DNA of 64,000 nt from a virus (IMGVR_UViG_2850796239_000011:29227-93226); one strand, 5' to 3'; counted from the stretch's first letter, positions 8,826-46,091 are shown. Notes: a model not told the origin generated them from the sequence alone. Program-made: numbers and translations.

Positions 8826-8852
8826 CCAGATACAAAATACAAAAAGAAACCT

Positions 8853-12791: not shown

Positions 12792-13016
12792 AAAAAACAA
12801 TTGCGCTTGTTTTCGCGGTCAGTCTGGCTGTCTTCGGACTTGTAGGTTGCGATCGCGTTGAACCAGGTAATGTGGGTATCAAAGTCAACAAACTGGGCGA
12901 CGACAAAGGTGTCGGTGAAGTGGTCGGTGTTGGTCGCTACTGGACTGGCTGGAATACTGAAGTGAACCGCCCCGGGAATCCTGGAGACTAAACTTCCTGA
13001 GAAAGAGGTAAACAGG

Positions 13017-15295: not shown

Positions 15296-15356
15296 GGTAG
15301 CCTGAGTTTAACGGACACTCCTTCCTGAAATAGAATGGCATCAGAAGGAGCTAATA

Positions 15357-15659
15357 ATGAGCAGAAAAACCCAACGTTACTCTAAAGAGTTCAAAGCCGA
15401 AGCTGTCAGAACGGTTCTTGAAAATTAACTTTCGATCAGTGAAGGCGCTTCCCGATTATCCCTTCCTGAAGGCACTTTAGGACAATGGGTTACCGCCGCC
15501 AGAAAAGGGCTCGGTACTCCTGGTTCCCGCACGGTGGCTGAACTGGAATCTGAAATTCTGCAACTGCGTAAGGCGTTAAATGAAGCTCGCCTTGAGCGAG
15601 ATATATTAAAAAAAGCAACAGCGTATTTTGCACAGGAGTCGCTGAAAAATACGCGTTAA
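15357..15659 (+). pseudogene. IS600 orfA with nonsense codon (Gln24 to stop)
   Basis: GAA AAT TAA at 15420..15428 versus CAA in copies 1 and 3. Confidence 0.8.
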
Positions 15660-15694
15660 TCGAACAATGGCGACAACAATTTCCCATTGAAGCG

Positions 15695-16513: not shown

Positions 16514-16641
16514 AAAAAGAACAAATGGTAGTGTCCGCTATTGCCAGTACACCTCACTTATCTCAGCAGAAATTATCAGTATTGAACCCGCTACAAACAT
16601 ACGGCTCTGAAGTTCTCACTATTCAGAGAGCAGGAGAAAAA

Positions 16642-18648: not shown

Positions 18649-18751
18649 CTTTTAATACCCGTCATGTTAACTGTTAATGAGGGCATTGAGTCGGGGGCTG
18701 GCAGCATACTGCGCAAGCACAGTGGCAGCCACATTCTGCACGTTATGCCTC

Positions 18752-22176: not shown

Positions 22177-22886
22177 CAGGTGATCCCCCTGTTCGTGGCG
22201 CTTCGTCTGTCAGCGTCTGACGGTTGTGTCACCGACGCCGTAACTGACTGCGTTTTAACCGATGCGGCCCCTTTTGCTTTATCGTTGTCCGTGGGAGACG
22301 ACTTATCCGTACTTCCCACTGACACCTCTCCTGTATTCATTACGGTCTGAAATACCGCAGTAACCGTCAGTAAGGTCGGACCATTATTACTTCGCATTCG
22401 GTAGTCATATTTCACAAGGTCGCAGGATGTCCATGTCTTGTCCGGCGTCTCAATATCGTAGAGTCCTGCCGTGGTACGCATCCTTTCAAGCGTTTCCAGC
22501 ACATTCGTCCGCGAGGTGGTGGAAAAATTTGTCAGGTTCGGGACGGATCCGGAAAAGGCCGTCCACCCCTCTACAGTGAAAGTCACATGCAGTTCCGGCG
22601 ATCTCTGGATTTTATTAAAGGTGGTATAAGCCCCCTGCTCCACGGGGACGGTGGAAACAGAAGCCTCCGCGCCCACCTCAACGACAACAAAAGAATCCGG
22701 GGAGAAAGGTTTGCCACCCTTCTGATGGGCACCTGCCGGATCATTCCGTGCGTAATAAATACCGAATGACGGTGCCAGTACACTGTTAATGAGTCCCAGG
22801 ACACCGCCGCCACGAACTGCACTCAGTACGTTACTTTCACTGAGCGAAAAGTTATTCAGGGAAATATTATCGAAAGAAAAACTCAT
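22176..22886 (-). CDS. Tail protein (236 aa)
   Basis: Operon position downstream of tape measure. Confidence 0.5.
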
Positions 22887-24373
22887 CCTGTTACCCCGCT
22901 GGAATAAACCGACACAAGCGCCGAATTCGTGATACGCCGACGTGCGTCATCGGTAATACCCTTCACATTGTCCGACGTTGTGGTGACATTCAGTGTCCCG
23001 ATATGCGTGGTTTCCGTTACGGTGGACTGCGATACAGGCGCAGGATGGCGCGACCGTATGGCCATTGCCGCACCCGGATAAGGCAGGTTCGCCAGCACCC
23101 GCGGAATATAGTTGCGGGTCTCCTCCGGAGCAGCAGCCAGTCCCTTACGCTGAACATTTCCCTCTCCCCAGTTATATGCCGCCAGAGCCTTAGCCAGATC
23201 GCCATGAAAAAAACGTATCAGGCCACCAAGTTTTCTCGCGGCGGCATCAGCGGCTTTTTCGGGATCAAAGGCATCGTTCCCCTCAGACCAAATTCACTGG
23301 CCGTCTTCGGCATGAACTGAAACAGTCCCATCGCACCAGCAGGTGAGACGGCAAACTGATTACCACGGGATTCGGTGATCGCAACGCTGCGCAGCAGTCC
23401 GGGCGGCAGGTTATATTTTTCCTCCAGTTGAGACAGTTTCGGTTGCAGCCAGCCTAACAGGGCTTCCCCGGTCTTCGTCGGTCGCTGGCGGTTTTGCATG
23501 GCATTACCGAGTTTTTCCTGCGTCGCACGCATACCCTGTAGCCAGGATTCACCGAAGGCTGCTTCCCTCCCGGTTGCCTGAGAAGCCTGAGTATCCAGCA
23601 TGCCCTGCTGCCATACTGTGGGTGATTGTGCCCGGGTGATGTTGCCAGGCTTTTCTCCGGCATCCAGTTTTGTCTGATACGTCTCCATCTCTTTCTTATT
23701 GAAAAAGAAAGTCCCGTCTGAAGCCCAGAAAAAACCATGTGAATCCAGCCAGTCCTTATTTTCCCTGCCAACAATGGATGTCAGTAATCCGTCAACAACC
23801 GGGTAAAGCGCCGTTATCGCAAAAAGAAGGCCTCCGGGGCCACTGAGGGCTTTTGTCAGCCCCCCGCACCCATGACGCCACTTTCAGCCCGATCAGCGTA
23901 ATAATGGCATTCTGCCAGCCCCCCAGTTCTCCGGCAGCCTTATTCGCCAGGGAGGCCACTGACTCAACGTCATTCAGAAATGTGGTGATAAACCTGTTCA
24001 CTTCCTCCGGATGTTGCTGCATCCAGTCACCGAGTGTCTCCAGCCAGTGGCTGAGCTTCAGCGCGTACGGCATCAACGCGGTGCTAATCGTCATCCCGAT
24101 GCCGGACCAGGTCTGATCGAGCTCAACAAGCTCTTTTCGTAGCTTACGGGCCAGCGCTATACGCCCCGGCGTAACCTGCGAACGGGAAGTAAATTCGTCC
24201 ACATCTTTCAGCGCATGACCGGAGCCAAGAAACTGCTGTCCGGCATAACTGAAGCCCAGCGCGTTGCCGTAGGCAGTTTGTTCGGACTTTGTCAGTCGCG
24301 GAAAAATAACCGCCAGCTTGCGCATGATGGCTTCAGTGCTGTCAGTATTTAAATCAACACTAGGCTGTGTCCC

Positions 24374-24889
24374 TTAATTACGTAAGCGTTGATAAAAGAG
24401 TCGGATGCAGCCCAGTTTCACCATCGCCAGGTAATTTCTCGCCGTTTTGTCGTAACGCGTGGCGATGCGGCGATATTCTTTCAGCCGCCCAAAGCACCGT
24501 TCAACGACATTACGATTGCGGTACGCATCACGATCAAGCTGTGCACGTCCATCCGATGCCATTTTCTCATTTGACTTTCGGGGGATTACTGCCTTTATAC
24601 CGTTATTTTTCAGCTCGTTGCGCAATGCGCGCCCTGAATACGCTTTATCAGCCAGTACCGCATGTCCACGGCGTTTCATGCTGCCGTTCTGACGCTGAAC
24701 GCCAATCCCGTCCAGAAGTCGTTGCGCGAACTGGCTTTCATGAGCTTGTCCGGGGCTTAGCACGATATTTAACGGGAGGCCACTTCCGTCTGTTGCCAGA
24801 TGGATTTTGGTGCCAAAACCGCCGCGAGAGCGACCCAGCCCATTATCTCCGTCGATATCGGGATGTTTTTTTGAGCACCGGCGGCACAT
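24374..24889 (-). CDS. IS5-family transposase OrfB (DDE part)
   Basis: Downstream overlapping frame; intact in this copy. Confidence 0.7.
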   Translation of the reverse strand: MCRRCSKKHPDIDGDNGLGRSRGGFGTKIHLATDGSGLPLNIVLSPGQAHESQFAQRLLDGIGVQRQNGSMKRRGHAVLADKAYSGRALRNELKNNGIKAVIPRKSNEKMASDGRAQLDRDAYRNRNVVERCFGRLKEYRRIATRYDKTARNYLAMVKLGCIRLFYQRLRN

Positions 24890-25218
24890 TTCAGCGCCCG
24901 GATATTACTGCCATCCAGCGCGGTGGCAGACCAGTCAATAAAGCCGTTTGCATCAAGTAGCGAAAGCAACCTGTTGAAAATAATATTAATCACGCCTGAC
25001 TTTGACCATCGGTTAAAGCGGTTATAAACAGTTTTCCATGACCCATATCGTTCGGGTAAATCGCGCCATGGTGCACCGGAACATAACACCCAGAACATGC
25101 CATTGATGATTTTACGGTGCTCAGCCCATGGGCGTCCGGCCCGTGGTGTGGCGGGTTCAGGAGGTAACAGGGGCTTGATGATGGTCCATGCCTCATCGGG
25201 AAGGTCGTAGCGAGCCAT
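24769..25218 (-). CDS. IS5-family transposase OrfA
   Basis: LPDEAW...GRP...WRDLPERYGSWKTVYNRFNRW motif. Confidence 0.8.
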   Translation of the reverse strand: MARYDLPDEAWTIIKPLLPPEPATPRAGRPWAEHRKIINGMFWVLCSGAPWRDLPERYGSWKTVYNRFNRWSKSGVINIIFNRLLSLLDANGFIDWSATALDGSNIRALKCAAGAQKNIPISTEIMGWVALAAVLAPKSIWQQTEVASR

Positions 25219-26029
25219 AGTTCAATATGTTGTGTAAACAGACAGTTACTATAGCTCAGATGATTAAGGGACACAGCCTAATGCCCGCCCTGGCTGCAAC
25301 CTGAAACAAATCCTGTAACACAGGATCAAAGGACCTTCCGGCTCTGAAGGCCGCTTTTGCATTTGCAAGCCGGGAAAATGCCCCAGACATTTCCCCTTCA
25401 TCAACATTATTTGCCCGCGCAGCCCGTAACCATCCGTCCAGATTTCTGGCCTTCATGCCAAAAGCATCAGATTCCACGGACAGACGGTTCAGATCACGGG
25501 CAAAACCTGTTACCAGGTTCTTCAGCCCCCCCAGCGTCAGACTGACACCCGCAAGAGCCAGAATCTCGCTACGGATCCCTGAAAAAAAACGGGACGCCCG
25601 TTTCCCGGCATCTTCCATTCGACGGGCCGTTTTATCAGCATCTTTTCCGGTTTTTTCCAGTGATTCACTGGTTTTCTTCTGTCCCTGACTGAATGTGTCA
25701 GCGACACCTTCCATCACCGTCGTGAGCCGGTTAAGGGCAGCATGTACTGCCTGTTCCCCGGCAGTAAAGTCCCTGTCATCAATCCCGAGGGACAGAACAA
25801 GCTCATCAAGTACCTGCGCCATTTCTGTTCTCCTGTATCACCTGTTCGTTATGGGCATCCACATGAATTATTTCCAGCAGATCCCATAAGTCCTGCACAC
25901 CAAGGACAGAATCCAGTTCAGCTTTTGAAGCCTTACCGGAGGAGATAACGGTCGCAATGGTACGGGGAACATTAACGTAATCCACCACCCCGAACGGTCT
26001 GTCGGGGTCGAGATAACGCGGGGGGATAT

Positions 26030-26434
26030 CTAGCTGACGACGGTAGCGAAAAAATCCACATGCAGCTTAAAGACCTCCGCACGCAGATTAAGACGGGTAA
26101 TGATTTCTTCAATATCCTCTTCAACAAGCGGTCTCCGGATGCTGCGTTTTTTCGGATCGGGAACAAACTGCACACAGTCCATCATTTCATCCATCAACGG
26201 ACGCGCCTCATCAGGCGGAATTTTCGATAATGCTTTCAGCCCTTCAAGGGCAAGCGCAGCCATCCCCAGACTACGAACATCATCCGGTAACTCCACGCCA
26301 CCACGCCCCATTGCCATAATGGCACGCATCGCCCACCATTCCGCCTGTAAGGCAGACATTTCGGTAAGATGAAATACCTTGCCCTTATCCCGTCCCTGAC
26401 CTTCAATAGTGATAAATTTCTCTTTACGGGCCAT
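26030..26434 (-). CDS. Putative tail assembly chaperone
   Basis: 134 aa between tube and tape measure. Confidence 0.45.
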   Translation of the reverse strand: MARKEKFITIEGQGRDKGKVFHLTEMSALQAEWWAMRAIMAMGRGGVELPDDVRSLGMAALALEGLKALSKIPPDEARPLMDEMMDCVQFVPDPKKRSIRRPLVEEDIEEIITRLNLRAEVFKLHVDFFATVVS

Positions 26435-26880
26435 CAGTTAAAAACCTCCGGAGTAATGGTTTCCCACTCAATAACCGCCTGCCCTGGCTGCAACGTACGA
26501 GCTGCATCAGGCAGCGCTTTCCATTGTTTGAGTACGCCATTCACGCAGGTATATTTACGGCCAATCGCCGGAAGCAGGACGACAGCGTTACAACGGAATA
26601 CAGCCCGACTGGCCCGGGATGTGGTTGACCAGGTATCAAAAATATCCCGGCTGGGGGAATCCGGCATGATATGAAACGTCTGGATAATGTTGCTGTACAC
26701 AAATCCCGCGGACAGTTTACCGTCAATACCGCGGGCAGTTTCCGCCAGTACCAGTGGATCGGTGCCATAAACGTTATCTGTTGCAAATCCCTGAAGTCGT
26801 ACGCCGGAGGGATACAGATTATTCACTGTCAGCGTGATAATGGCATCCGCCGCAGTGATGGTGTTGTTGTTACCCGACAT
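26434..26880 (-). CDS. Tail tube protein
   Basis: 148 aa immediately downstream of sheath. Confidence 0.6.
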   Translation of the reverse strand: MSGNNNTITAADAIITLTVNNLYPSGVRLQGFATDNVYGTDPLVLAETARGIDGKLSAGFVYSNIIQTFHIMPDSPSRDIFDTWSTTSRASRAVFRCNAVVLLPAIGRKYTCVNGVLKQWKALPDAARTLQPGQAVIEWETITPEVFN

Positions 26881-28365
26881 TTACTGGACCTCCGTGGATG
26901 CAATAACAAGTTTCTGGATACTACCGCCGTCACAGTACCAGAGCGTACAGGACGGACTGCTACGGGTTGCCCGCAAAGAGGGAAGCATATCGCCGATATA
27001 CAGGTAATAGCCGGTGGCAAACAACGTTGAAGAAACATCTGCCCCCACAACATTGTTAATCTGTTTCTTCTGCGCCTCCGTCAGTGTCACCCCTTCACGG
27101 ATCCCTCCCCAGCGTTTGTACTGCTGGATAACGTCACTCATTGACGCTGCAACCAGCGCCCGCCCTTCATTGTTGTAGGGGATCGTCTGGTTTGACTTGA
27201 ATAACGCGATCACCGCCCCCTGCAAACTGGCATTCAGCCAGATTTGCCCGCAGAAACTGTCCAGCCATTTAAAATCACCGGTAATAGTGCCATCCGCCCA
27301 GTAATCTTCCACCACACTGTTTTCCGCATATTTTCCGTAGAAATTGTAACCTGCGGCGATCAGCGCATCATAATCGCTGCCACTGGTAACATCAGCGGCC
27401 AGCCCCTCATACTCGCGGAACTTGAATGATACACGCCCCTCTGGTCGGACAAAATCAAGGCACGCTGCATACCCCAGTACCGCTGCAGCCCGGTTACCAT
27501 CAGTCGCGAAAACAGGTACAACAGAGCTGTAGTTATTGACAGCAATTATCTGGTAAGCGATGTGTTTAGTACTGCCTTTTACTCTGGCGTTGCCGCTGGT
27601 TGTCCATGCCACATAAAAGTAACGCTTGCCCTGCCCGTTTGCCCATGCAGAAAACGCCAGGTGTTGCTCGTCAGTGACCTCAGATACCGTGGAAAAACCC
27701 GCCCATTGCTGGGAAGCGGCCTTAATGGCTGCCATTGTGTCAGGGACATCAGATACAGGCGCGCCCCGGGATATCACCGCACCGGTGTTACTGGTCATCT
27801 TCAGGAGTTCTGCTGCCGATCCACTGCCGAACGTTATCGTGGTACTCCCGGGTTTCGCACCGGCGACAGTAATGACAAAAGCATTCTGTGTGGTATCGAA
27901 TACCACTGTAGCCACTGCTGCGGTCAGCGCTGTCTGTAGTGCCGTTGCAGCAGCGGCGAAGCTGGCGACACCGTTAAAATTCACTTCAATGCTGACGCTT
28001 TTCCCGTTAATACTCAGCATCAGCGTGCCGGAAAGTTTTTGTAGCTGTTCAACAGTCGCGCCCTTAAACGAACCGCTACGTAACCAGGCCGCCGATGGGG
28101 CAGGACTGAAACGGGAAAACAACAATTGCCCCGGCGTCCTGGTGGCATTTTTGAAGCCCTGGAAATAAAGCTGAGCGCGTGCGTACTCATCGGATAATGC
28201 ACCAAAATACGCGGCCACATCATCCGGAGAGGAAAACGGAACCACAGTGCCGACCGGAAGTAACGGATTACTGGTCAACAGCAGGCCGTTAAGATCAACG
28301 GCATTACCCGCCACAGCCAGCACACCGGGATTTATCTGTACATCTTTACTGAGTGGAATTGGCAT
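26881..28365 (-). CDS. Tail sheath protein
   Basis: 494 aa, position and size. Confidence 0.75.
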
Positions 28366-28891
28366 TATCAGCCTCCGTTGTCCGGGTGATCACGTTGTCA
28401 AAAAACATCAGGGAAGTTGTGACCACAGGGTTAATCTGCATCTGAATATCAAGCGTCCAGCGCGGTTCATACTGTTGCTGACCGTTGGGGAATGTGGTGT
28501 TAAAGGGCTCTGAGCAATACAGCGGGGAAATCAGCCCACCGCCCTGCCGGAAAAGCCGTACGGAAAATTCAGACCGGAAAAGCGTTGCCAGCACCTGCGC
28601 GTTATCTGCCGCGTGAGGGCCGTAGAAATCAAGCTGGCAACGCCATTTTGTGGTACGGGTGATATGCTGAGAGCCCTCACCAGCCTGCGCTGGCGCAGAA
28701 TATGCCACTACCGCAGTGGATAATCCGGTAACATCAATGCCCGTCATGGTGATGAAATTCCCCTGAGGCATCGGGACCTGGTTCTGCTGCGTTCGTTCAA
28801 TCCCGGCATCAGAAAAAAGCCCCCGGAGATAATCACCGAGGGCCTGATAAAGAGCGCTTTCCGTAACGGAGAGGGTCACACCTGAAGGCAT
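28346..28891 (-). CDS. Hypothetical tail protein
   Basis: 181 aa. Confidence 0.45.
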
Positions 28892-29241
28892 ACAATAACC
28901 CTCGTCCAGTCAGGCCAGATTTCCGGTACCTCAATCACCAGCCACGTTTCATCGCCAATAACAAATTTATCGCCTCCCTGTTGCCGGGCACGGTTAAGCC
29001 CGCACCAGTTACCATCGGTATACAATGTGGCGAAAACTCCCTGCTGGTTAAGATTATCAAGATGACGTAAATCAGCCTGGGTGACAGCCTGCTTTTGCAC
29101 CCTGACGGAAACCGGATCTTCATACTCAGGTACGCGGGAATAATCTGCCTGCTGTGTACTCCCGCGGGAACGATAAACCAGCGCGTCTGTAAAGGGATTT
29201 ACCCGACGTACTGCGCCGGAAACAATACCGTGAAAGTTCAT
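28876..29241 (-). CDS. Hypothetical head-tail protein
   Basis: 121 aa. Confidence 0.45.
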   Translation of the reverse strand: MNFHGIVSGAVRRVNPFTDALVYRSRGSTQQADYSRVPEYEDPVSVRVQKQAVTQADLRHLDNLNQQGVFATLYTDGNWCGLNRARQQGGDKFVIGDETWLVIEVPEIWPDWTRVIVCLQV

Positions 29242-29822
29242 TTTTTGCCCCCGTCTACAGAATAATCAACGCTGTCCATCATATGTCCGGTTTCAATAAG
29301 CGGGTTGTTAAAACCCTTTTGCCGGGCAGTGGATGCAGCGTTGGGCGGACTTTCCCAGTCGCGAACAGACATCTGCAACTGCCCTTTGATATGTTCTCCC
29401 ATACACACCAGAGCGGTCGCAGTATCAAAATCATTCGCCCGTAATAAGGTCGCCATTTTTTCGCCCCATTCGGGACTTTTATGTTCGATCATCTTACGGA
29501 AGAACGGACGGGGGGGAATGGTGACCGTGTGCTCAGGAATAACCACATCCTGAACAAAATTCCCTTTACCGGCTTTGACAAAGCGGTGCCCGGTTTCTCC
29601 CGTTTTTTCGTTATAGCGAAAGTGGAGCGTCTGCTCACGGGCGGGTATGACCGCTCTTCCACCAAACTCCTGAACTGCGGCAATATAAGCCACTGACGTA
29701 CCGTCAGGGTAAGTTGCTCCCTCAAGAAAACCCACTTTGAGTTTTTTACCCAATGAAAGGTTCGCGGCAACCTGTTTCAGCTTCTGCCGGAACTGTTTGC
29801 CACCTGTGACTTTATTTACCAT
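29238..29822 (-). CDS. Virion morphogenesis/tail completion protein
   Basis: Start reassigned to MVNKVTGG; upstream part of track ORF is out-of-frame overlap. Confidence 0.5.
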
Positions 29823-30270
29823 CGACGCCCCTCCCGTATCCCCGGTAATAATGCCCCGGATATCGCGAAGGTGACCCCCCGGAATGATACTGCATTGAGC
29901 GGTATGGCGCTGTCGCCTGCCAGTAGTCAGCACCCCAGGGGGTCTGGAGATACCACCACGACGCATCATTACTGCCGCTATTATCCACCGATACCGATAC
30001 AGAACCTTCCGACGCACTGGTGATACGCCCCACCAGACCAGCCTGCCCGTCTCTCCCGTTTCCCAGCCCCCGCAATGCGCACAGATGCGCAACCAGCAGG
30101 AACAGAAGCTGTTCCCGCTCCTTCAGGTCGGTAACCGGACTGTCGTCCGTGTTATCCAGGTACAACGCGGTCGCCTGGTTAAACACCGCCGTCAGTAGCT
30201 CCGGTGTCACCGTGGAAAACTCCGGGTACAGACTGACAAACATCCGACAGTCAAACGTCACCGTACCCAT
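29812..30270 (-). CDS. Head-tail connector-like protein (DUF4054-like)
   Basis: 152 aa. Confidence 0.45.
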
Positions 30271-30275
30271 AGCGT

Positions 30276-30614
30276 TTACTCCTGAGGTTTACCCATCACT
30301 TCATCATTGCGGTTAACGCCCGGAGCCGGATTTTTCTGCGGCAGCGGTTCAAGGCCGGATTTAACGGCTTTCTGCTCCGTAGCCTGCGAGACTGCACTGT
30401 TCGCCTTATCCTGCGCAAAAATAACGCCATTTTTCACATAAGGTTGCTGTCCGTGCTCCGCCAGCCAGGCGTCAAAAAACACCTTATCGACCTGCGTCAG
30501 ACCATAGCCCCCACAATTTTAACCGCGTTATTCCGCCAGCCTGCCACCTGAACCCGTTTCTGACCCACTTCCAGCACCAGACCGTTCGGCAGTTTGCAGC
30601 CCACTGTTACCATT
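30276..30614 (-). pseudogene. Hypothetical head protein with frameshift at a C5 run
   Basis: Two frames join into one ~110-aa protein across 30508..30512. Confidence 0.45.
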
Positions 30615-31652
30615 TCAGCCATAACTCACACCCCAGCATTTGTGCATACGCCAGCGGCTGGCGAATAATCGCCCCCAGGTACCAGCGGATTTTTTCTGTT
30701 TCCAGGAAGACGTATCTGCCACTACCGCATGGGCGCGCATTTTTTCAGTGAAAGCGCAATAGACTGTATCCTGTTCACCCAGACGCTCCGCGATAAGCTG
30801 TACCAGCTCGCCAGCGTCAGAGGTGTATTCCACCGCCGTTTCAATGGTCATCGCCGGGAAATTTTTCGCCAGCAGATCGGACACGTTAACCCTGTACTGG
30901 TTTGTTTTGGTGAGGTTCACCTCTGCCAGCGGCGACATGCACAGTTTCATTTTGTCGGTACGCTCAATATGACCGTTAGTCTGTTTCACCAGTTGCTTAA
31001 AGAGTTTCACGATATCGTCATACACGCCCTGTCCGTCCTTGTCGTCCCACTTCAGTTTACCGTCAACGGTATCCGGGGTGATTGGTGCAGATAACGACGG
31101 ATCATTCAGCAAACCGTAGTTCGTCAGTCCGGCAATACCGTAGAAATAGGACTTATTCTGGAACTTATTCAGCGTCAGTGCTGACGCCACGTTCAGCTCT
31201 GCCGCCCAGCCAATACGGGCTGCGCCGTACATCTCCAGCTCACGTTCGCCCCATACGGTGAAGGTCTGGAAGTGATAGCTCTGGCGCGGTACCCAGTTGA
31301 CGTTTGCGCTTACCACCCCGTTGTTGCTGTAATCCCCGTAGGAACTCACCTCCCCGTCAGATTCTGCAATCGGGAATTGTGCCGACAGTGTCGTCCAGTC
31401 ACCTTTTTTGGTTTCGCCCAGAATCTGAGCGGCTTTCATCGGCGTCACCAGCACGCGGATCAGTTCTGGCTCAACGTAATTGGTGAAATACGCAGGGATA
31501 CCGCTGTTAGCCGCTGTGACCAGCGCAGGCTGCGCGTCCATCGCCAGTCCGTAATCGGCGGCGTACTCCTTCGGCAAATAAGCCTGTGCTCCGGGAAGAA
31601 TAATCCCGTAGTCGCGACTTGCCGTCGCATAATGCTGTTTAAATTTATTCAT
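30615..31652 (-). CDS. Major capsid protein
   Basis: 345 aa after scaffold-like gene; C-terminal ~40 aa look out of frame. Confidence 0.7.
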
Positions 31653-32134
31653 TATTTACTCCAGGTACTGATCTTAATGACTTCTTTTGCCGCCGCAGCG
31701 CTGGCAACGGAAAACCAGGTTTCGACAAACCCCGCCATCGAGGTGCCAGCCGCCCCCGTGGCTATCTCCCCGGTGGCCAGTGAGGCAAATACTTTCTGCC
31801 CGATCGTCGCAGTAGTGGTGGTCAGCGCCCAGAAATCCCCCGACACCATCAGGGTGCATTCACGCCCCGGATAAATGGTGTTCGAGTCCCCGGCCAGCCA
31901 TTCCACAATGGAAGCCTGCCCGTCACGAGGAACAAAACCCGCCGGTGCGCCGACCCCCTTATTAGCGGCAACACCTTTGGTTACCCAGGCAAACCGGGCA
32001 ATTACCAGCCCGTCAGGGCCGGTAATCAGCCCGCCATCTCCCGCCACATACGAGGCATGAGGGTTAGCACTGGCAAACGCCCCCGGAATACCCGGTGCCG
32101 GGTACTGGTTCATGTGTGTCTGAAAAGTATTCAT
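31652..32134 (-). CDS. Head protein (decoration/structural)
   Basis: 160 aa, Gly/Ala-rich. Confidence 0.45.
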
Positions 32135-32135
32135 A

Positions 32136-33473
32136 TCAGTAACCTCGTTTCAGTTTTGCACCGGGGAAATCTGCCGCAAACGTCGATGCGCTGGCCTGAT
32201 CCATCGCCACACGAGGAGAGGATTTGGCCGTCTGCTTCTGCTCAACGGCAAACTTCACCATGCTGCGGTACGCACCGGGGTGAATACCCTGAATATCGAT
32301 CCCCGTCTGTTCCAGCGCGGTACGGTAAACATCTTCGGCGCAGTCCATCGCCACCACATCGCCAATCAGCGGTCGCACTTCAGCTTCAGCCACACGGACG
32401 GCGCGGAAATTTTCAGCAGCCCGTTTCGTTGCCTGGTCAGTTGCCAGCCTGATTGCTGCATCCATCGCAGGTTTATCGACTTTCACATCGTCGGGTTTCA
32501 CATCAGCCTCTTTTGTTTCGGGGGCTTCGTCGGTTGTCGGAGACAGTGCGGATTTAATTTTTTCCAGCACATCATCAGGAACTTTGCCGGACAGCAACGC
32601 CAGTACACTTTCCATCGGGCTGTCGGTATCAAATGCCTTCGACTCGTCAGTTAACCCGGTATCATCATCCCCGACCAGCTCCGGTACGGCTTCTGCTGAT
32701 TCCATCAGTTGCGCCAGCTCCGCCGGTTCAATATCCATATCCTGTGCCAGCCGTTCGCTGTAAGCAGTTTTTACCGCGCTGGCGATAGCTGCCGGACGCT
32801 TATACTGTAACAAATCCCCGGGAGCCGCATCCTGCGCCAGACGCGGCGCAAGATAGGTTCCCAGCGCGGTAAGCACCGCCACTTCTTTTTTACTCAGTTT
32901 CATGCGTTTTAGCTCCTGAGGGAGAGAGTCCATAACAAGACAGTCCGACCCTACCCGGCCATCGCCGACCAGGGCCACATGATTTCCCACGATATTCCGC
33001 ATAACGCCGTCATACGGCTCACCGTCGGGGGTGGTTCCCGGCGTCATATCTGCCACATAGGCATATGACGATGAGATTTCCCGTTGTTCATCCGTTTCTA
33101 TCCCCGCGATGGCGGAGTTGTCCCAGATGGACATGCCGTTAACCAGATAGGTACCGTCAAACTCGCTGTTGGCATGAGTCGTCCCCACCCGGTACTCGCG
33201 CGCGGGCGCGCCCGGATAATCGGGTTTGTGTCGGCACAGGACGGGAATATTGTTGAAGGTTGAAACTGCCTTGCGCAGTTCATCGGGGTCACGGTAAAGC
33301 TGATAAAGTTTTTTGGGGTCGAGTCCCAGCGCTTCCGCCCCCGGTATTTCATACCCGAAATAACCGCAGACGTTCGCCTTGCTGAGATTACTGCGCTCAA
33401 TCTGGAGGCGACCGACTTTATCGAACTGCCTTACCGATGCCCGGTCAAACGCCAGCATTTCGGTAATAATCAT
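32136..33473 (-). CDS. Prohead protease/scaffold-like protein
   Basis: Start reassigned to MIITEML; acidic Ala-rich C-terminal half. Confidence 0.5.
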
Positions 33474-34290
33474 TTTTTCTCCAGTCCGGGAATAACGGCC
33501 TCCCAGCCACACCGGCAGTTGATTTCTTCGCCCGGCAGTACCCACTTACCATCCAGAAACATCCCCTTTCGCAGGTCAAACCGTTTACCGTTCGCCTTCA
33601 CATGCGACGGACGCCATGTTTTACCCGCGCGGGAATGCCTCCAGACACCTTCAGTGATACCCACCGAACGCTGTCTGGCGGCCTGCATTACCGACGTTGC
33701 CTTATTGTTCTGGTCGCGGGCAATCAGCGCCGCGCGCCGTCGTGTGATGCCGTAACGTTTTTCCAGTTCATCGGTCAGCGTTTTCAGGTCACGTCCCCGG
33801 CCAACAGACTGCATGACCAGTGTTTCCACCTGGGTGAGATGTTGCTGCGGGATGGAGCGAATGAGGTTCACATTCTCCGTGATGCTGGCCTGAAGTGCGG
33901 TATTCATCTCCGTTGTCATACGGAAAGGAACCGTAAACCCGGCATCACGGAGCGCAGTGTACAGTGACGCATCGCTGTTTTTCAGGACATCACCGGCAAA
34001 CCGCCTCGCCAGCCGCAGGGCCATTTCGTCAAAATTTTTCTGCCAGCGCCGGGCAAGTTGCTGCATGGCACCACGCATCAGGTTAACGGGGACGCATCCT
34101 GCGCGAGGTCTGTTTTACGGTACTCAGCCCGCAGCCAGTAAAGTACACTGTTGTGCATCCCACTGACGGCATTATCCAGTTGTCTGCGGTACCAGGCCTC
34201 AATCCCCGCGTTGGGTGAAATCCGCCTCAGGGTCTGCATTCGGGCCTTGCGGCGGATTTTCTTCGGTGTTGTCAATTTCAGTGTCGTCAA
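33470..34290 (-). pseudogene. Head morphogenesis protein (Mu gpF / SPP1 gp7 family) with frameshift
   Basis: N- and C-terminal frames rejoin if GGGG at 34088..34091 gains one base. Confidence 0.55.
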
Positions 34291-35749
34291 TTTCGATGTC
34301 CCCGCTCAGGTCAATACCGCTGTACGGGCTGTCCTGCGCAGTCGCCAGCCGTTCGCGTACTTCGTTATTGGTCACTGCTCCGGTGCTCTCATAAATCTGA
34401 TCCGTTTCCGCCTCAGTTTTACGGATATTCGCCAGTTGCTCTCGCGTCAGTTCATGCAGGGGTTCAAATTCAAACGTGATATCAGGATCGATATCGCCGA
34501 ACTCAGACAACTGGATAATATCCAGCACCTTTTTCAGCGGTTTCTTCAGAAGACGGGTGGCAAGTGCAGCAATGGTGTCGTAAAACACCCGGATTTCACC
34601 CTCACTCGACGCATTCAGTCCCGTTGGGCTCAGCCCGGCGAATTTTACGGACGGTATGGCACTGACAAAGAACATGTGTTCCTGTGCCTGCGCCTGAAGG
34701 GTGTCGAGGCCGCTCAGGGGAGTGTTGAACTGGAAAAACTCTTCGTTCGTCTTGTCCAGCATCAGCAGCCCGCGGTTATCACGGGTACGGTTAAACAACT
34801 CCGCGCGTTTTGCGTAATTCGGGTCCCTTTTACCACTTAATACCTGTGTCATATCCGTCTTAATCCCGCTCAGCGAAAACGAATGCAGCATATCGCCCAC
34901 GCTGTCGCGTGTTCGCAGCCAGTTATCAACATAAGGCTCAGCAATCTGAACCAGTGACAGGCCGCCAAAGTTGTAGGCCGGCTTCAGCATGTCCGGAACC
35001 GGACGGGAGATCAGATCAATCATGCGGCTGGCGTGAACCGTTTTTCCCATTACGTACCATTCGGACGGACGGTAAAAATCATCACTCAGCGGATCATCCG
35101 CGTTATATATACCCGGATACGTCCAGACGGGTTCAATAACACGAAGCCCCAGCAGGGAACCTTTCGGGATTTTTTTGTCGGAAATAAACAGTCCGGATCC
35201 CAGCTCCGCCGGGTCAGTCCAGGCAGATATACCCGATGGCGAACGCACATCAATATAAATCTGCCCTCGCCCGAAAAAGCCGTCGTGCTCAATCGCCAGT
35301 CTGAAAACGTCCTGTACGTTATAGTGCTCCAGTGCGTCAGTAAGCTGCGCTATGCGTGACGCGTGGCTGTCGTCCCCTTCTCCGACCGCCTTAACCTTTA
35401 TCCACTTACGGGTCATCTCCTCGGCAAGCACACTGACCATACGCCGGTACTCCGGTAACTGCGCCTGAAGTGCCAGATACGGATAGCCCGGGAAACCACC
35501 ATAAACAAAATCAGGATAATGACTGTTCAGGGTGTCATACGGTGTTGCATCCATTGCCAGCACAGCGTCGCGAACCGGTGCCGGGATAACGCCCGGTGGT
35601 GGCTCATAGCGAACAAACTCCCTCCGTGGTTTCTGCCGGACGGAAGCGATCACCTCATCGTTAATTTCCGGTGGCTGTGGTTCAGGTTGTTTGTCCGGTA
35701 CCGCCGGCGCTGACGGTTCTTTTCGTTTAAACGGCCACATCAGATCCAC
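34199..35749 (-). CDS. Portal protein
   Basis: 516 aa between terminase and head morphogenesis genes. Confidence 0.8.
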
Positions 35750-37359
35750 TCCATAAAGTCATCAGAAATTACGATGGGCATTTCCATCGGGGCATAAGCA
35801 ATCATCACAGAATCAGCCAGGTTTGGAGATTTCGTTCCGTCAGGTTGCTTATCCACAAGAATTTTTCCGGTGGCATTTTTTGACCAGGTAGGTTGTGACA
35901 GCTCCATCAACAACCGGTCTTTATTTTCCATTGTGCTGCTGATGGAAATAATCTCATCCGGGTCATACTCCATACCCTGTAGTGCACGAAATGTATTGCG
36001 GAATAATTTGCGAAGATGCCACCACCCCTGGGCTTTGGCATTGACAAAAAAGTCCTTATTCAGACGAGCCGGTTTACCATTATCACCGGGAACAGCTTCA
36101 TTTTCAGGATGAAACACGCTCCCGCTGCCCCGGAATGGAGTGGCGGTGATTTGACAGATGCCCTCCGCTTCACGCAGTTCGTTGATAGCGCGCGCATCAC
36201 CACGAACGCCAGCACCCAATCCGTCCTCATCAAAGCGAAACTCATCGGCACCAAAGTCATCGCACAGACCAAAAACCTTAACCACAGAGTCATAGATGTC
36301 ACTCCCCTTACCTGACCACTCCTGTACGTCATTCAGCAGGATGCCATAACGGAGCGAACAGGCGTTTTTATCCCGCCCTTCGTCGGCGACATCCATTGCA
36401 CCAAGCCGTTGGCCGCCGGGCTGAATGCCCAGTCTGATATGTGCATCAACCGCAGCCTGTACCCATTCTGAGGGGATCAGGATGCCTTCTGCTGATGCCT
36501 GGTAATTAAGATCCAGTTCCTGGGCAACGATGACTGGGTTATCAATTTTATCGCACTCCTTGTGATACCACTCATCGTCTTTACGCGGATCGCTACGCCA
36601 GTGAAACGTAAACACCGGGATTTTTCCACTGTGCCGCTTCTGTGCGAAGGGGTTGTTCATGCCGTTAACCGATGAGAGATCGATACGACATCGGGTTGTC
36701 TGAGAAAGCGCGGCATCAATAAGTAATGGTCGCTGGAGAAAAGCAGCCTCATCCACAAAATAAAGGGTCGTACGGTCACCACGACCGATATTATCGCCAG
36801 CCTCACCTTTGATAACCGCGCCAGTTTCAGGAAACTCAACACGCATATATGGCGCGTGCTTCTTCTCGCTCCACGAACCGCGAAACTCTACAGGTAGCGT
36901 TTCCACGAACTTGCGCGCCTTCCAGAACAATGCCTTCGGGTCACCGGTGCTGTCGACGTATTCCTCTTTACGGGAGCCGAAACCGATAACCATTTCTTTG
37001 TTGAAGAGACAAAGCGAGCAGGCCAGTCCGATCGCGGTCCAACTGAGCCCCATTTCACGGGATTTTTCGGTAATACCATTCTCCCGATTGCTCCAGCGTT
37101 CCATAATCCAGTGGATCCACTCCTCCTGCTTAGGGAAGAGTAAAAACGGAATGGTCACCGGCAGGCCATAATCAATATTACGCGGGTCCGTTGTCATGCC
37201 CCAGTCGATGATGAACTGAGCCGGATTGGTTCGGTAAAACTGCTTCAATACGGGCAATATTTCAGGGTTCTGGCGAATGCGCTGTAGGCGTTCCATCCGC
37301 CATTCAAAAACCATCTGGTAATCAGGATGTTTAAAATCGAAGGGGAATGGTAACGGCAT
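35740..37359 (-). CDS. Terminase large subunit
   Basis: 539 aa; Walker-like motifs and nuclease-domain acidic residues. Confidence 0.9.
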
Positions 37360-37491
37360 ACTTAGCCCATCATTTTTCTATACACCTCTGCGGCCTGCTC
37401 AGGCGTTAATTTGGTAATTTCTGTTCTGACTGGTCCTCCGTCAGCGCCTGAGGTGTACTGGCAATAGCGGACACTACCATTTGTTCTTTTT

Positions 37492-38310
37492 TTAAGCAGC
37501 CATCTGATGATATTTTTCCCTGAAGGCTGCCGGGGAGATATTCCCCAGACGAGAGTGACGACGCTGACGATTGTAGAAAATCTCAATGTATTCCCGTATT
37601 ACTGAGATGGCTTCATCCCGGTTATTAAAACGATAGTGGCTCAGGCTCTCATTTTTCAGCGTTCCCCAGAAGCTTTCCATCGGAGCGTTGTCGTAACAGT
37701 TACCTTTACGCGACATTGATGTTTTCAGACCAAACTGCTCCTGTATGACCCGGTAATCGTATGCGCAGTACTGTGAACCTCGATCAGAGTGGTGGATTAG
37801 CCCGGCAGGTGGGCGCTGGCTCCTGAGCGCCATAAACAGGGCTTTACCTGTCAGCTCTTTTGTCATGCGCTCTCCCATGGCGTAGCCGACAATTTCGCAC
37901 GTATAAACATCTTTGATGCCAGCGAGGTACAACCATCCCTCCTGTGTGGCAACATACGTCAGGTCCGCCACCCAGACCTGATTTGGTGCTGTAGGAGCGA
38001 ACGTCTGGTTCAGCAGATTTGGCGCAACTGGCAGATTGTGGTTCGGGTTCGTAGTCGCTCTGAACTTGCGTTTCTGCTTACAGCGTAGCCTTAGCTCCTT
38101 ACGAAGACGTGCCAGTCGGTCACGACCAACGATGATGCCATTCTCTGCCAGCTCCGTCTGGAGCCGCCGGGTTCCATATGTTTCGCGAGTGCGGATATGT
38201 GCCACCTTAATCTCCAGTTTTAGCCGCTCATCACTTTGTTTTCTGTCTGAGGGTTCATGCTGTACCCAGTTGTAATAACCGCTCCTGGATACACCAAATA
38301 CCTGACACAT
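37492..38310 (-). CDS. IS600 transposase OrfB
   Basis: 272 aa. Confidence 0.9.
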   Translation of the reverse strand: MCQVFGVSRSGYYNWVQHEPSDRKQSDERLKLEIKVAHIRTRETYGTRRLQTELAENGIIVGRDRLARLRKELRLRCKQKRKFRATTNPNHNLPVAPNLLNQTFAPTAPNQVWVADLTYVATQEGWLYLAGIKDVYTCEIVGYAMGERMTKELTGKALFMALRSQRPPAGLIHHSDRGSQYCAYDYRVIQEQFGLKTSMSRKGNCYDNAPMESFWGTLKNESLSHYRFNNRDEAISVIREYIEIFYNRQRRHSRLGNISPAAFREKYHQMAA

Positions 38311-38345
38311 CGCTTCAATGGGAAATTGTTGTCGCCATTGTTCGA

Positions 38346-38648
38346 TTAACGCGTATTTTTCAGCGACTCCTGTGCAAAATACGCTGTTGCTTTTTTTAAT
38401 ATATCTCGCTCAAGGCGAGCTTCATTTAACGCCTTACGCAGTTGCAGAATTTCAGATTCCAGTTCAGCCACCGTGCGGGAACCAGGAGTACCGAGCCCTT
38501 TTCTGGCGGCGGTAACCCATTGTCCTAAAGTGCCTTCAGGAAGGGATAATCGGGAAGCGCCTTCACTGATCGAAAGTTGATTTTCAAGAACCGTTCTGAC
38601 AGCTTCGGCTTTGAACTCTTTAGAGTAACGTTGGGTTTTTCTGCTCAT
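38346..38648 (-). CDS. IS600 OrfA
   Basis: 100 aa, intact. Confidence 0.9.
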   Translation of the reverse strand: MSRKTQRYSKEFKAEAVRTVLENQLSISEGASRLSLPEGTLGQWVTAARKGLGTPGSRTVAELESEILQLRKALNEARLERDILKKATAYFAQESLKNTR

Positions 38649-39284
38649 TATTAGCTCCTTCTGATGCCATTCTATTTCAGGAAGGAGTGTCCGTTAAACT
38701 CAGGCTACCTCAGCCAGTCACTTCATTTTTGACGTTGTCTTTAAACGCCTGAACAGAAACATGACGCCCAAGCAACTCAAGGTTTTTAACCTTATCAGGC
38801 CATTTGATTTTCTTCAGAAGTGCGGCGCTATCTGCGGATACCATCTCCACGACATCCATTCCTGATAGCGTTGTGCGCCATACCTTAGGCCAGTCTTTAA
38901 TGGGCTTTAGCTCACCGTTTTGCAGGAGAATGTCGAGCACATCCATCTGGTCGATTTCAACCAATCTACGAAGAACATAGGCGGCATCTATACCCGTCTG
39001 CTCAACGCGGGCGGATTTAAGTTCAGCAACGAATTTTTGAACATTAACATTTGCTAATAATCGAGATGCCTGCTCATTGGCGGTCTTCTCGCTGTAGCCC
39101 GCCCTGATAGCTGCCTGTGTGCCGTTCAGATCTTTCAGGTACTCACGGGCAAACAGCTCTTGTTTGTCGGTGAGCTTTGCCATTATTTGTGCTCCGTTTA
39201 TCCGTTAAAAGGGATATCAGTTAAGTTATCCCGTGTAGGGTATAAGCCATTATCAAGCCCACCCGTAGATGGGCTTTGTAATGG

Positions 39285-39542
39285 CTACTTCGCTTTTGCT
39301 TCCGCTCGCTTACGCCGGCGCTCTTCTTTCCTCTCGGCTTTTGCCATGTCCATGAATGCCTGCATGATCGAGTTCCGCATCATGTAGCTAACAAAGTGAT
39401 GATTGACACAGCCGTTGAGGCGCAGCTGCTCGCCAAACTCATCCACCGAGGCCAATGCTTCCATCATGCCCTTCTCGCCTTTCATGAACTCTGAGAAGTC
39501 GCGCCCCGCTCTGGAGGCGCATTCAATGACACGATCACTCAT
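39285..39542 (-). CDS. Hypothetical protein (85 aa)
   Basis: Coupled to upstream KilA-N gene. Confidence 0.45.
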   Translation of the reverse strand: MSDRVIECASRAGRDFSEFMKGEKGMMEALASVDEFGEQLRLNGCVNHHFVSYMMRNSIMQAFMDMAKAERKEERRRKRAEAKAK

Positions 39543-40036
39543 CCCGGAAGCCCGGGGATCGTTATCTGCAGCTGGTTAGCCAGGGAGTTAATCTCAGCGA
39601 CCAACACTGGCTTCGTATAGCGCCATGCCGCCAGCCCTTGTCCACAGAAGCTCGCCATATCTTTTTTCTGATCAAACTCATGACACTTCATATTGAGCTG
39701 CGCACTTAATCTGTTGCGATGCTGAAGTTCTCCGGTGAAGTAGTCATCCAGGACTTTATAGGCTGCATATTTAAATCCGGGGTTTAGCCATGCTGCATAA
39801 TCATAAGCAACAAACTTCCCGCCATATGTTCCACCGTGTACACCGCGCTCAGTAAAAACCACAGATTCGTGGTTTTTCTCCAGCTCGGCTAAGAACTCTT
39901 TGGTCTGCTTGTTTCGCAGGTAGTGGTACGGAGATTCAGATTCACTTTTACCACTGGCTTTCCACATATCAGTGAGGCAGATCATTCCTGATTCATCAAC
40001 ACGGATCGGTGTATTAAAAAGCGTGATTGCTTTCAT
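39539..40036 (-). CDS. KilA-N domain protein
   Basis: MKAITLFNTPIRVDESGMICLTDMWKA N-terminus typical of KilA-N. Confidence 0.7.
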   Translation of the reverse strand: MKAITLFNTPIRVDESGMICLTDMWKASGKSESESPYHYLRNKQTKEFLAELEKNHESVVFTERGVHGGTYGGKFVAYDYAAWLNPGFKYAAYKVLDDYFTGELQHRNRLSAQLNMKCHEFDQKKDMASFCGQGLAAWRYTKPVLVAEINSLANQLQITIPGLPG

Positions 40037-40185
40037 GGCGTCTTTACCTTTTAGAAAGATGAGCCTGTTCGCACAGAAAAGCCGTCCCCGAGATGGTCGC
40101 CACCATATACGGCAATTCTCAGGCTCAGCTTTCTGAAAGACTCGGGGTTTATATGCGCTGCGATGCGCGGTTTACTGCGGACATA

Positions 40186-40209
40186 TAAAAGCCCCGCAAG
40201 TGCGAGGCT
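40186..40209 (-). terminator. Putative intrinsic terminator downstream of Rz
   Basis: 7-bp GC-rich stem, tetraloop, then TTTTAT on minus strand. Confidence 0.4.
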
Positions 40210-40241
40210 CATTAAATGGACTTTGTGATTTGCAAAAAAAT

Positions 40242-40709
40242 TTATTTCAGGCACTGAGTCCTGATGTACTCCTGAAGCATTCTCAATGCTGTCTGGTCGC
40301 TGATGATTCCGTCCCGGATACCGAGAACGTTTCGTCCAGCAACTGGAGAGAGTTCGACGGTGGCATCATTGCCCATGCCGGAGGCGCTGGAGGTTTCGGC
40401 TGAGGATGGCACAGGGCATTTTCCTTTGACGAGCACCCGACCACCATTATCAAGCTTGCGCCGAAGAGCATCATTTTCAGCTTTCGCATCAGCTAACTCC
40501 TTCGTGTATTTAGCATCGAGTGCATCAGCAGAACGCTGGCGCTGCTGCATGTCAGTAATGGTTGCGTTCGCCAGCTTCAGTTCTCTTGCGTTTTTGTCGC
40601 GCTGCTCTTTGTAGGTAATGGCGTTATCACGGTAATGAATAACAGTCCATGACAGGCAGACGATGATGCAGATAACCAGAGCGGAGATAATCGCGGTGAC
40701 TCTGCTCAT
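40242..40709 (-). CDS. Rz: Spanin, inner-membrane subunit Rz
   Basis: Close match to lambda Rz ([17 protein letters not shown]...); start taken at MSRV. Confidence 0.85.
40283..40489 (-). CDS. Rz1: Spanin, outer-membrane lipoprotein Rz1 (embedded in Rz)
   Basis: +1 frame inside Rz; lipobox VVGC; Pro-rich. Confidence 0.7.
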
Positions 40710-41193
40710 TGCTGCCCCCACAAACAGACTTCACGCTCAATCTCACGACGGGTCATCAGCCCTTTCCATTGCTTACCGCCAGCATATGTCCAGCGACGTA
40801 GCTGGTCACATGCGCCTTTGATATCGCCCTGGTTTATTTTGCGAAGAAGCGTCGATGTTCTGAAATTGCCAGCGCCCACGTTGTAAACGAACGAGTAAAG
40901 AGCGCCGCGCGTTGTTTCCGGTATATCGACTTTGATGTACGGGTTAATTTGTCTGGCGACAGTGGCAAGGTCTTTATTCAGGAGAGCTTTGCATTCTGCT
41001 TCGGTATACGTTTTACCAGGCATGATGTCTTTTCCGGTGTGTCCGTGACATACAGTCCATACACCAATGATATCTTTGTATGGTATGTAGCTGACACCTT
41101 CCAGACCATCGTTACCACCTGGGCCAGTGATTAGGCTGTGTCCCTTAATCATCTGAGCTATAGTAACTGTCTGTTTACACAACATATTGAACT

Positions 41194-41643
41194 ATGGCTC
41201 GCTACGACCTTCCCGATGAGGCATGGACCATCATCAAGCCCCTGTTACCTCCTGAACCCGCCACACCACGGGCCGGACGCCCATGGGCTGAGCACCGTAA
41301 AATCATCAATGGCATGTTCTGGGTGTTATGTTCCGGTGCACCATGGCGCGATTTACCCGAACGATATGGGTCATGGAAAACTGTTTATAACCGCTTTAAC
41401 CGATGGTCAAAGTCAGGCGTGATTAATATTATTTTCAACAGGTTGCTTTCGCTACTTGATGCAAACGGCTTTATTGACTGGTCTGCCACCGCGCTGGATG
41501 GCAGTAATATCCGGGCGCTGAAATGTGCCGCCGGTGCTCAAAAAAACATCCCGATATCGACGGAGATAATGGGCTGGGTCGCTCTCGCGGCGGTTTTGGC
41601 ACCAAAATCCATCTGGCAACAGACGGAAGTGGCCTCCCGTTAA
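41194..41643 (+). CDS. IS5-family transposase OrfA
   Basis: Identical to copy A OrfA. Confidence 0.8.
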   Translation: MARYDLPDEAWTIIKPLLPPEPATPRAGRPWAEHRKIINGMFWVLCSGAPWRDLPERYGSWKTVYNRFNRWSKSGVINIIFNRLLSLLDANGFIDWSATALDGSNIRALKCAAGAQKNIPISTEIMGWVALAAVLAPKSIWQQTEVASR

Positions 41644-42037
41644 ATATCGTGCTAAGCCCCGGACAAGCTCATGAAAGCCAGTTCGCGCAACGACTTCTGG
41701 ACGGGATTGGCGTTCAGCGTCAGAACGGCAGCATGAAACGCCGTGGACATGCGGTACTGGCTGATAAAGCGTATTCAGGGCGCGCATTGCGCAACGAGCT
41801 GAAAAATAACGGTATAAAGGCAGTAATCCCCGAAAGTCAAATGAGAAAATGGCATCGGATGGACGTGCACAGCTTGATCGTGATGCGTACCGCAATCGTA
41901 ATGTCGTTGAACGGTGCTTTGGGCGGCTGAAAGAATATCGCCGCATCGCCACGCGTTACGACAAAACGGCGAGAAATTACCTGGCGATGGTGAAACTGGG
42001 CTGCATCCGACTCTTTTATCAACGCTTACGTAATTAA
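41523..42037 (+). pseudogene. IS5-family transposase OrfB with frameshift
   Basis: CCCC at 41828..41831 versus five in copy A; frame diverges after KAVIP. Confidence 0.7.
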
Positions 42038-42119
42038 GGGACACAGCCTAACACAGATGCTATAGCAACAGCCCCGCCACCAATAGCAACTGCAACAGCC
42101 TTGCGTAATGATGGCGACA

Positions 42120-42335
42120 TTATTCACCTCTCGCAGCCTTACGCTTGTCTTCTCTTATTTTGAAATACAGATTCGTCAGATAAGTCAGAAGCCCCAGAAG
42201 CAGACTTCCCAGCACACCAATCGCAGCCCACTGTGATGGACTGACCTGATCCAACCACTGCAAAAACCAGTAGCCGGCACTGCCGGCGGAGGTGCCGTAG
42301 GCAATGCCCGTTGAAATTTTGTCCATGGATTTCAT
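42120..42335 (-). CDS. S: Holin, phage 21 S-type (pinholin)
   Basis: [28 protein letters not shown] matches recalled S21; stop overlaps endolysin start. Confidence 0.8.
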
Positions 42336-42450: not shown

Positions 42451-42526
42451 ATGGTGCTGGTTAACGGACTTGAACCGCTACCCATTCGCTTACAAGGCGA
42501 CTGCTCTACCATTAGAGCTAAACCAG
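42451..42526 (-). tRNA. tRNA-Thr (anticodon UGU)
   Basis: Hand-folded cloverleaf: perfect 7-bp acceptor stem, 4-bp D stem, loop CUUGUAA, TTCAAGT T-loop, 3' CCA. Confidence 0.7.
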
Positions 42527-42531
42527 CATAT

Positions 42532-42606
42532 TTGGCGGGACAGCGTGGACTCGAACCACGATAAGAAGGTTAACAGCCTTCCGTAATGACCTTTATACGA
42601 CTGACC
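42532..42606 (-). tRNA. tRNA-like gene (possible Asn, anticodon GUU), imperfect
   Basis: Perfect anticodon stem, loop CUGUUAA, GGTTCGAGTCC T-arm, 3' CCA; one acceptor-stem mismatch and 3-bp D stem. Confidence 0.45.
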
Positions 42607-42796
42607 CAAATAAAAAATCCCGAAAGCAGGCTCTATTCCTATGTGCTCTCGAGTTTATGATGCGCATGTCAGTGCGCTTAGCGAAAAACGCCGTAAACCC
42701 TCGCCCGACAGGGCGGGGAGCAGTCACAACTTAAAGATGAGGTGGGTAAAAAACCGAAAGAATGTGAACGGATATAAACCTGCCATTCTTGAGTCA

Positions 42797-45773: not shown

Positions 45774-45939
45774 AACGACCTCGCGTTTCGATAATTTTTA
45801 CCTCACCACCTTCAGGTTCCAATCATCGGGTGGCGAACTGTGCAGGGTTGGAACTACCGGTCGAAACATCCGGCGCACCTTTCGGTGCCCCCACACAGCC
45901 CGCCATAAATCGCGAATGTGACTGTGCTTAGCGCATAAA

Positions 45940-45965
45940 AAAACCGCCAGCGCGGTATGCACCGT
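45940..45965 (-). terminator. Putative weak intrinsic terminator (tR-like) in nin region
   Basis: Short GC stem followed by U7 on minus strand. Confidence 0.3.
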
Positions 45966-46091
45966 TTCGATATCCGGGGTTCCAATCCCGACGCCAGATT
46001 TTGCTGGCGCGTGAGGAATATAGCCCCGGATATGTGTTGTCGTCAACTACAGGCCTTGAATGCATATAACGATTTTGTTATGTTGATACCT

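Follow-up and report, generated by a model that had tools for sequence, protein, structure and literature searches.

We analyzed a stretch of DNA of 64,000 nucleotides (IMGVR_UViG_2850796239_000011:29227-93226, here called the window), an exact match to CP026875.1 of the long-read assembly GCA_002950355.1, in which two inverted insertion sequence (IS) elements of the IS5 family interrupt a tape-measure gene and an endolysin gene of a prophage. All positions are coordinates of the whole 64-kb window, and the elements were delimited by a repeat search of the window and direct reading of their ends. The repeat search detected inverted arms at 24581-25282/41130-41831 (702 nt) and at 24361-24583/41828-42050 (223 nt), each 100% complementary. 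Copy A occupies 24363-25278 (916 bp, transposase on the minus strand), with the inverted repeat left (IRL) end at 25278 and the inverted repeat right (IRR) end at 24363; its orfA and orfB are intact and it carries an A7 slippery run. Copy B occupies 41134-42048 on the plus strand (915 bp). A perfect 16-bp terminal inverted repeat, GGCTGTGTCCCTTAAT, bounds both copies at all four ends, and the window contains this 16-mer only at the four IS ends (four occurrences, 0 expected by chance). There are no substitutions between the copies; the sole difference is one base at IS position 695, where CCCCC of copy A reads CCCC in copy B (window 41828-41831), and as written this C4 run breaks orfB of copy B (135 aa vs 171 aa) and shortens the DDE domain.

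An earlier note on this DNA, made from the sequence alone, claimed two inverted IS5-family copies, and both the 100% complementary arms and an IS5-family profile match (below) confirm the claim. The coordinates given there belong to the same elements and include the flanking TA dinucleotides. The TA dinucleotides are located at 24361-24362 (outer side) and 25279-25280 (inner side) of copy A, and at 41132-41133 (inner side) and 42049-42050 (outer side) of copy B. As the comparison reference we used the uninterrupted prophage in the enteroinvasive E. coli CFSAN029787, the closest relative of the surrounding DNA (99.6% identity). In this prophage the empty site of copy A reads ...CAACACTAATGCCC... 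and the empty site of copy B reads ...CAGTGATTAACACAG..., each with a single TA, demonstrating that the TA flanks are true 2-bp target-site duplications; the duplication noted earlier at each copy was thus borne out on re-inspection.

Copy A splits codon 181 (nt 543-544) of a gene for a 673-aa tape-measure/lytic tail protein. The intact gene is located at 6884-8905 of the CFSAN029787 prophage locus under the NCBI name 'lytic transglycosylase domain-containing protein', and the 673-aa homologue is encoded between the tube gene (E217_Gp32) and the baseplate genes. Along its full length it is matched best by phrog_2013 'lytic tail protein', and it additionally matches phrog_2276 'tail length tape measure protein' (1.2e-29, residues 1-607); no Pfam domain was detected in the N-terminal 370 aa. 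The tape-measure label is reasonable because of the phrog matches and the position between the tube and baseplate genes. The N-terminal fragment (codons 1-181; 25281-25822, minus strand) reads into the IS, forming a 188-aa chimeric open reading frame (ORF) at 25256-25822, and the C-terminal fragment with the SLT lytic-transglycosylase domain lies at 22883-24362 on the minus strand. Excision of copy A with one TA restores a continuous frame for the N-terminal 375 aa, which together with the phrog matches bears out the earlier view of a disrupted tape-measure gene with a frame continuing across the IS. Two further frameshifts were found in the C-terminal fragment. The +1 frameshift at 23860, an extra C in a C5 run, is present in seven of seven independent assemblies and is for this reason judged to be real, a second genuine lesion of the gene hit by copy A. 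At the -1 frameshift at 23279 the seven independent assemblies disagree with the window, and it is probably an artefact.

Copy B splits codon 24 (nt 71-72) of a 165-aa endolysin gene of the RrrD/R21 signal-anchor-release (SAR) type, and excision of copy B with one TA restores the complete 165-aa endolysin. As written, the C-terminal catalytic fragment (codons 25-165; 40706-41133, minus strand) is fused to 17 IS-encoded codons in the ORF 40706-41185, and the N-terminal fragment (codons 1-24, with the Gly/Ala-rich SAR segment) is located at 42051-42120 on the minus strand; through the insertion, the catalytic domain is cut off from the SAR membrane segment. The endolysin has a GH24 phage lysozyme domain (Pfam PF00959, 155.6 bits), and the E-8-D-5-T motif is visible in the restored protein, which aligns over the full length with RrrD (PDB 4zpu, E = 5.6e-108) and with 3hde, the phage 21 endolysin (~1e-107). 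Residues 8-25, AVAVAIGGGAVAIASVLI, are Gly/Ala-rich and align with the RrrD N-terminus; they form a typical predicted SAR segment, paired with a class II holin (Phage_holin_2_1) encoded directly upstream of the endolysin. The full-length matches and this holin agree with the earlier note, which was right to call the interrupted gene a SAR endolysin.

The segment between the copies (25281-41131, minus strand, 15.85 kb) contains the tape-measure N-terminus and the genes for the tube, sheath, neck, capsid, portal and TerL, an IS600, and also a truncated terS, a KilA-N gene, Rz and the endolysin C-terminus. Outside the pair lie the baseplate genes (~18.7-22.9 kb) as well as two thirds of the tape measure, its C-terminal part. 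The pair had been described as bracketing the whole head-tail module, which was an overstatement, given these outside genes and the Rz, KilA-N and terminase genes inside. Alignment of the window with the CFSAN029787 prophage produced five blocks, all plus/plus and in ascending order, separated by three clean insertions: copy A, the 1264-bp IS600 and copy B. This collinearity with an uninterrupted prophage indicates that the 15.85-kb segment is not inverted in the window, and that the order and orientation of the flanking and intervening DNA, as read from the alignment, is still ancestral.

Fusion of orfA and orfB by a -1 shift at the A7 run (IS positions 407-413, within the orfA/orfB overlap) gives a 281-aa protein with the Pfam domains DUF4096 and DDE_Tnp_1, which the conceptual fusion covers continuously. 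The fused transposase aligned end to end with NCBIfam NF033580 'IS5 family transposase' (321.5 bits, cut-off 110), and a 99.9%-identical copy carries an annotation of programmed frameshift by the Prokaryotic Genome Annotation Pipeline (PGAP). The DDE transposase would arise from orfA/orfB via the -1 frameshift at A7, and the element would insert at TA, duplicating that TA. Copies that match copy A at 100% identity are present in E. coli CFSAN029787 and FDAARGOS_943, and plasmid copies of S. dysenteriae, S. boydii and S. flexneri, which the NCBI PGAP labels 'IS5-like element ISSfl7 family transposase', are 99.5% identical to it. Judged by its sequence, the element is the catalogued Shigella insertion sequence ISSfl7 of the IS5 family, a name that rests on the PGAP labels of 99.5-100% identical copies. 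The likeness to ISSfl7 as found on chromosomes and virulence plasmids of Shigella and enteroinvasive E. coli appears near-complete, including the predicted production of the transposase by a frameshift; there is no substantive difference, copy B being one C shorter in the C5 run, probably by consensus error. The small size, two frames and 2-bp duplication presumably fit the IS427 subgroup of the IS5 family. ISSfl7 was previously reported to interrupt fimD in a S. boydii strain (PMC4374849).

Searches of other NCBI and Logan assemblies detected each of the two chimeric ORFs at the copy A junctions in nine contigs, and at least nine independent assemblies contain both junctions. AERN01000103.1 (GCA_000193915.2) has the inner junction of copy B, and the short-read contig QWSH01000075.1 terminates exactly at the outer TA of copy B. 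Since independent assemblies carry the same junctions, both ISSfl7 insertions are genuine, not misassembled, and they are common to several strains of the lineage. Misassembly, a concern raised with the first description of the pair, is excluded by the three of four junctions found in independent assemblies and the short-read contig that ends at the fourth.

The consensus quality of the assembly is relevant for copy B. The window and the CFSAN029787 prophage differ by 10 indels, eight of which are one-base changes in G/C homopolymers. Short-read contigs of SRR3793777 cover 17.1 kb of the window with 0 substitutions, and relative to them the window is one base short at 23279, 30508, 30631, 30672 and 34088, all in G/C runs of 5-6. 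The compared region has 36 G/C runs of at least 5 and a further 9 kb (no indel) has three, giving 5 shortened runs out of 39 (~13%). The five indels come with zero substitutions over 17.1 kb, which favors consensus error, and the one-base deletions in G/C runs are probably errors of the long-read consensus. A mismatch-repair mutator as the source of the homopolymer deletions was rejected, no substitutions being seen alongside the five indels. Because of these deletions, the tape-measure, capsid-region and Mu-F-like head morphogenesis genes appear frameshifted. With about one in eight G/C runs of at least 5 shortened in this assembly, frameshifts at such runs need short-read confirmation before the genes are called pseudogenes.

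The locus is best explained by two independent ISSfl7 transpositions into a lambdoid prophage that encodes a contractile-tail structural module and is located beside ybhC in a Shigella boydii lineage. We assign a probability of about 0.9 to this explanation, i.e., two simple in-situ ISSfl7 insertions in a decaying prophage.

The alternatives concern the origin of the pair, the history of the segment between the copies and the state of copy B. Composite transposons with inverted IS arms are known (Tn5 with IS50, Tn10 with IS10), and the pair with its interior shares their geometry: near-identical inverted copies of one IS around a central segment, with the four terminal repeats intact, so that a 17.7-kb block with phage structural genes might be a transposon of this type. 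Unlike Tn5 and Tn10, the unit shows no sign of having moved. The DNA inside the unit and on either side of it is collinear with the uninterrupted prophage, each interrupted gene has one part on the inner and the other on the outer flank of its IS, each copy is flanked by a separate TA duplication, both sites are unoccupied in CFSAN029787, and sequence searches did not find the 17.7-kb unit in another context. The arms are independent insertions in a pre-existing prophage and the cargo consists of broken structural genes; we rejected the composite-transposon origin on the collinearity with the intact prophage, and it has very little probability. An assembler could also have duplicated or misplaced one real copy, considering that the copies are near-identical and the assembly has consensus errors, but all four flank/IS junctions are supported outside this assembly and this explanation has next to no probability. 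According to the earlier note, the inverted copies are substrates for inversion of the DNA between them, and the 16-kb segment would then be, or have been, an IS-bounded invertible segment with two isomers. The absence of substitutions between the 916-bp inverted repeats, the frequent rearrangement in IS-rich Shigella genomes (PMC8072062) and a sister-strain contig joining the endolysin-side IS to yehL, which suggests that the copies can recombine, are in favor of this. RecA-dependent recombination between the repeats could invert the segment, presumably with a neutral effect in a dead prophage, and as a generic possibility the claim stands; no inversion is seen here, the window being collinear with the uninterrupted prophage and the assembled state being the ancestral orientation. 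We used the junction ORF 25256-25822, expected to be identical in both isomers, as the probe for assemblies, and no inversion isomer was seen among those carrying it, which are a single complete genome with both insertions and otherwise short-read contigs that stop at the IS. A precedent for inversion was also sought in the other inverted IS pair of the window, two IS600 copies 3.5 kb apart (10525-11788 and 15293-16556), and none was found: nothing is inverted between them, separate 3-bp duplications (CAG, CTT) flank the two copies, and the region follows the order of its reference prophage. TA duplications cannot exclude exchange; the argument against an inversion is built on gene continuity and collinearity, and on this evidence a past or present inversion of the segment is highly improbable.

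Several observations weigh against two simple insertions. The orientation of the segment rests on one long-read assembly with demonstrable consensus errors, and the short-read assemblies break at the IS, so the linkage across it is unreadable there. Every ISSfl7 insertion has TA flanks, and the duplications alone are compatible with past exchange between the copies. The C4 run could be a true mutation, in which case copy B would be defective and non-autonomous, with a real -1 frameshift in orfB, and mobilisable only in trans. The window reads C4 where copy A and the database copies read C5, the DDE domain is cut, and the frameshifted orfB described earlier is indeed in the sequence as written. 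This run is the only C5 run of the IS, copy B has no other difference from copy A, and the same assembly contains the five G/C-run deletions without substitutions. The full-length IS adjoining the endolysin fragment in AERN01000103.1 has C5, which is weak evidence on copy B, as this copy is possibly recombinant. The frameshift is most likely a long-read consensus error, and for this reason both copies are probably intact and autonomous; we regard it as very probable that copy B is really intact and as improbable that it is truly defective. The last observation also comes from AERN01000103.1, a contig of a sister S. boydii strain, where a complete ISSfl7 connects the endolysin C-terminal fragment with truncated yehL and yehM instead of with the holin gene. 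This raises the possibility that a rearrangement in the lineage involved at least one of these copies.

Positions 1-6081 of AERN01000103.1 correspond to 39197-42050 of the window, and the ISSfl7 in this contig has TA on both sides. Either copy B recombined with a third ISSfl7 copy to give this hybrid, or the contig was misjoined across the repeat. For the yehL/endolysin hybrid in GCA_000193915.2, the reciprocal junction was not found using the Q gene, a 77-aa ORF between Q and holin, and the Rha/ANT gene as probes: the Q gene was too widespread, the 77-aa ORF was present only in the source genome, and the Rha/ANT gene led to AERN01000016.1, which ends at the holin gene start, ~260 nt before the IS, probably at a repeat boundary. 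If the yehL join is real, copy B and the third copy would have recombined in a megabase-scale inversion across the terminus, splitting the prophage.

The same two genes were found to be interrupted by other elements in the same prophage of other strains. FDAARGOS_943 has an IS600 (~23004-24267 of its locus) at endolysin nt 107-113, 35-40 nt from the site of copy B, and E. coli RMDEC465 has an IS66-family element (~6286-8753 of its locus) at tape-measure nt 621-629, ~80 nt from the site of copy A. This comparison was post hoc and includes few events; the nearby insertions may result from selection to disarm the prophage or from chance in IS-rich genomes. It is doubtful that the interrupted genes are recurrent targets and that the ISSfl7 copies are already recombination hubs; if true, recurrent targeting might stem from selection against functional lysis and tail assembly.

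Further lesions were detected in the prophage. A third, independent IS insertion, the IS600 at 37449-38712 (minus strand, 1264 bp), is located inside the bracketed segment, where it interrupts terS close to the 3' end of the gene and is flanked by a 3-bp GCC duplication; it is 99.4% identical to a PGAP-annotated IS600 of FDAARGOS_943. The prophage stops abruptly at 18666-18673 inside a DUF2612 baseplate gene, the tail-fibre genes are gone, and directly adjoining is the integrase end of a second prophage, sited at yecE in CFSAN029787. This junction could be an integrase-mediated or illegitimate rearrangement between the two prophages. It shares only a few bases of microhomology (GTTAA..CTG). 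Because of the two ISSfl7 insertions, the IS600 in terS, the real tape-measure frameshift and the lost tail-fibre end, the prophage is predicted to be defective, no longer able to assemble tails or lyse the cell.

The defective lambdoid prophage DLP12 of E. coli K-12 carries the rrrD lysozyme and IS insertions. The prophage in the window resembles DLP12 in the endolysin type and in having been left defective and non-lytic through IS insertions and deletions, and differs from it by the contractile-tail (E217-like) module, the ybhC/lambda-att site and the other inactivating elements. IS-driven pseudogenisation and rearrangement are known from Shigella genomes (PMC8072062). The high IS density and the interruption of dispensable genes are similar here, while only insertions are documented at this locus, the inversion step between the copies being absent. 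We conclude that a known element and a known process, ordinary IS-driven Shigella genome decay, are represented. The locus documents the stepwise disabling of a prophage in the S. boydii lineage and has little significance beyond annotation; the inverted-repeat pair could confound assembly or yield neutral inversion isomers.

The IS load of the window is at least six copies in 64 kb: two ISSfl7, three IS600 (1-3 substitutions between the copies) and one further member of the IS3 family. The IS3-family element (12963-14272, 1310 bp) is located between the two IS600 copies of the inverted pair and contains an ALIL frameshift pseudoknot (Rfam match 13297-13413).

Other differences from the CFSAN029787 prophage were found in the bracketed segment. 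At 39284-40031, a 748-bp module with the KilA-N gene and an 85-aa ORF stands where that prophage has a different gene, a case of ordinary phage mosaicism. At 32807, 12 nt are deleted in frame from a DUF2213 gene; this deletion is also carried by short-read assemblies and is therefore real.

In the phage collection, no close relative of the whole structural module was found; only the lysis/Q region matches known phages (e.g., HK620 and HK97). Genes for tRNA-Thr (TGT) and tRNA-Asn (GTT) are located at 42452-42607, between the Q antiterminator and holin genes, and the tRNA set at this position varies among relatives, with Val/Thr/Arg/Ile in CFSAN029787. Rfam matches at 5492-5679, 45826-46023 and 55621-55679 are two C4 antisense RNA/isrK pairs, one per prophage, of which the second has a c4-a1b1 target site, plus a lambda CIII thermoregulator element; all are probably ordinary lambdoid or P1/P7-type immunity and regulatory RNAs.

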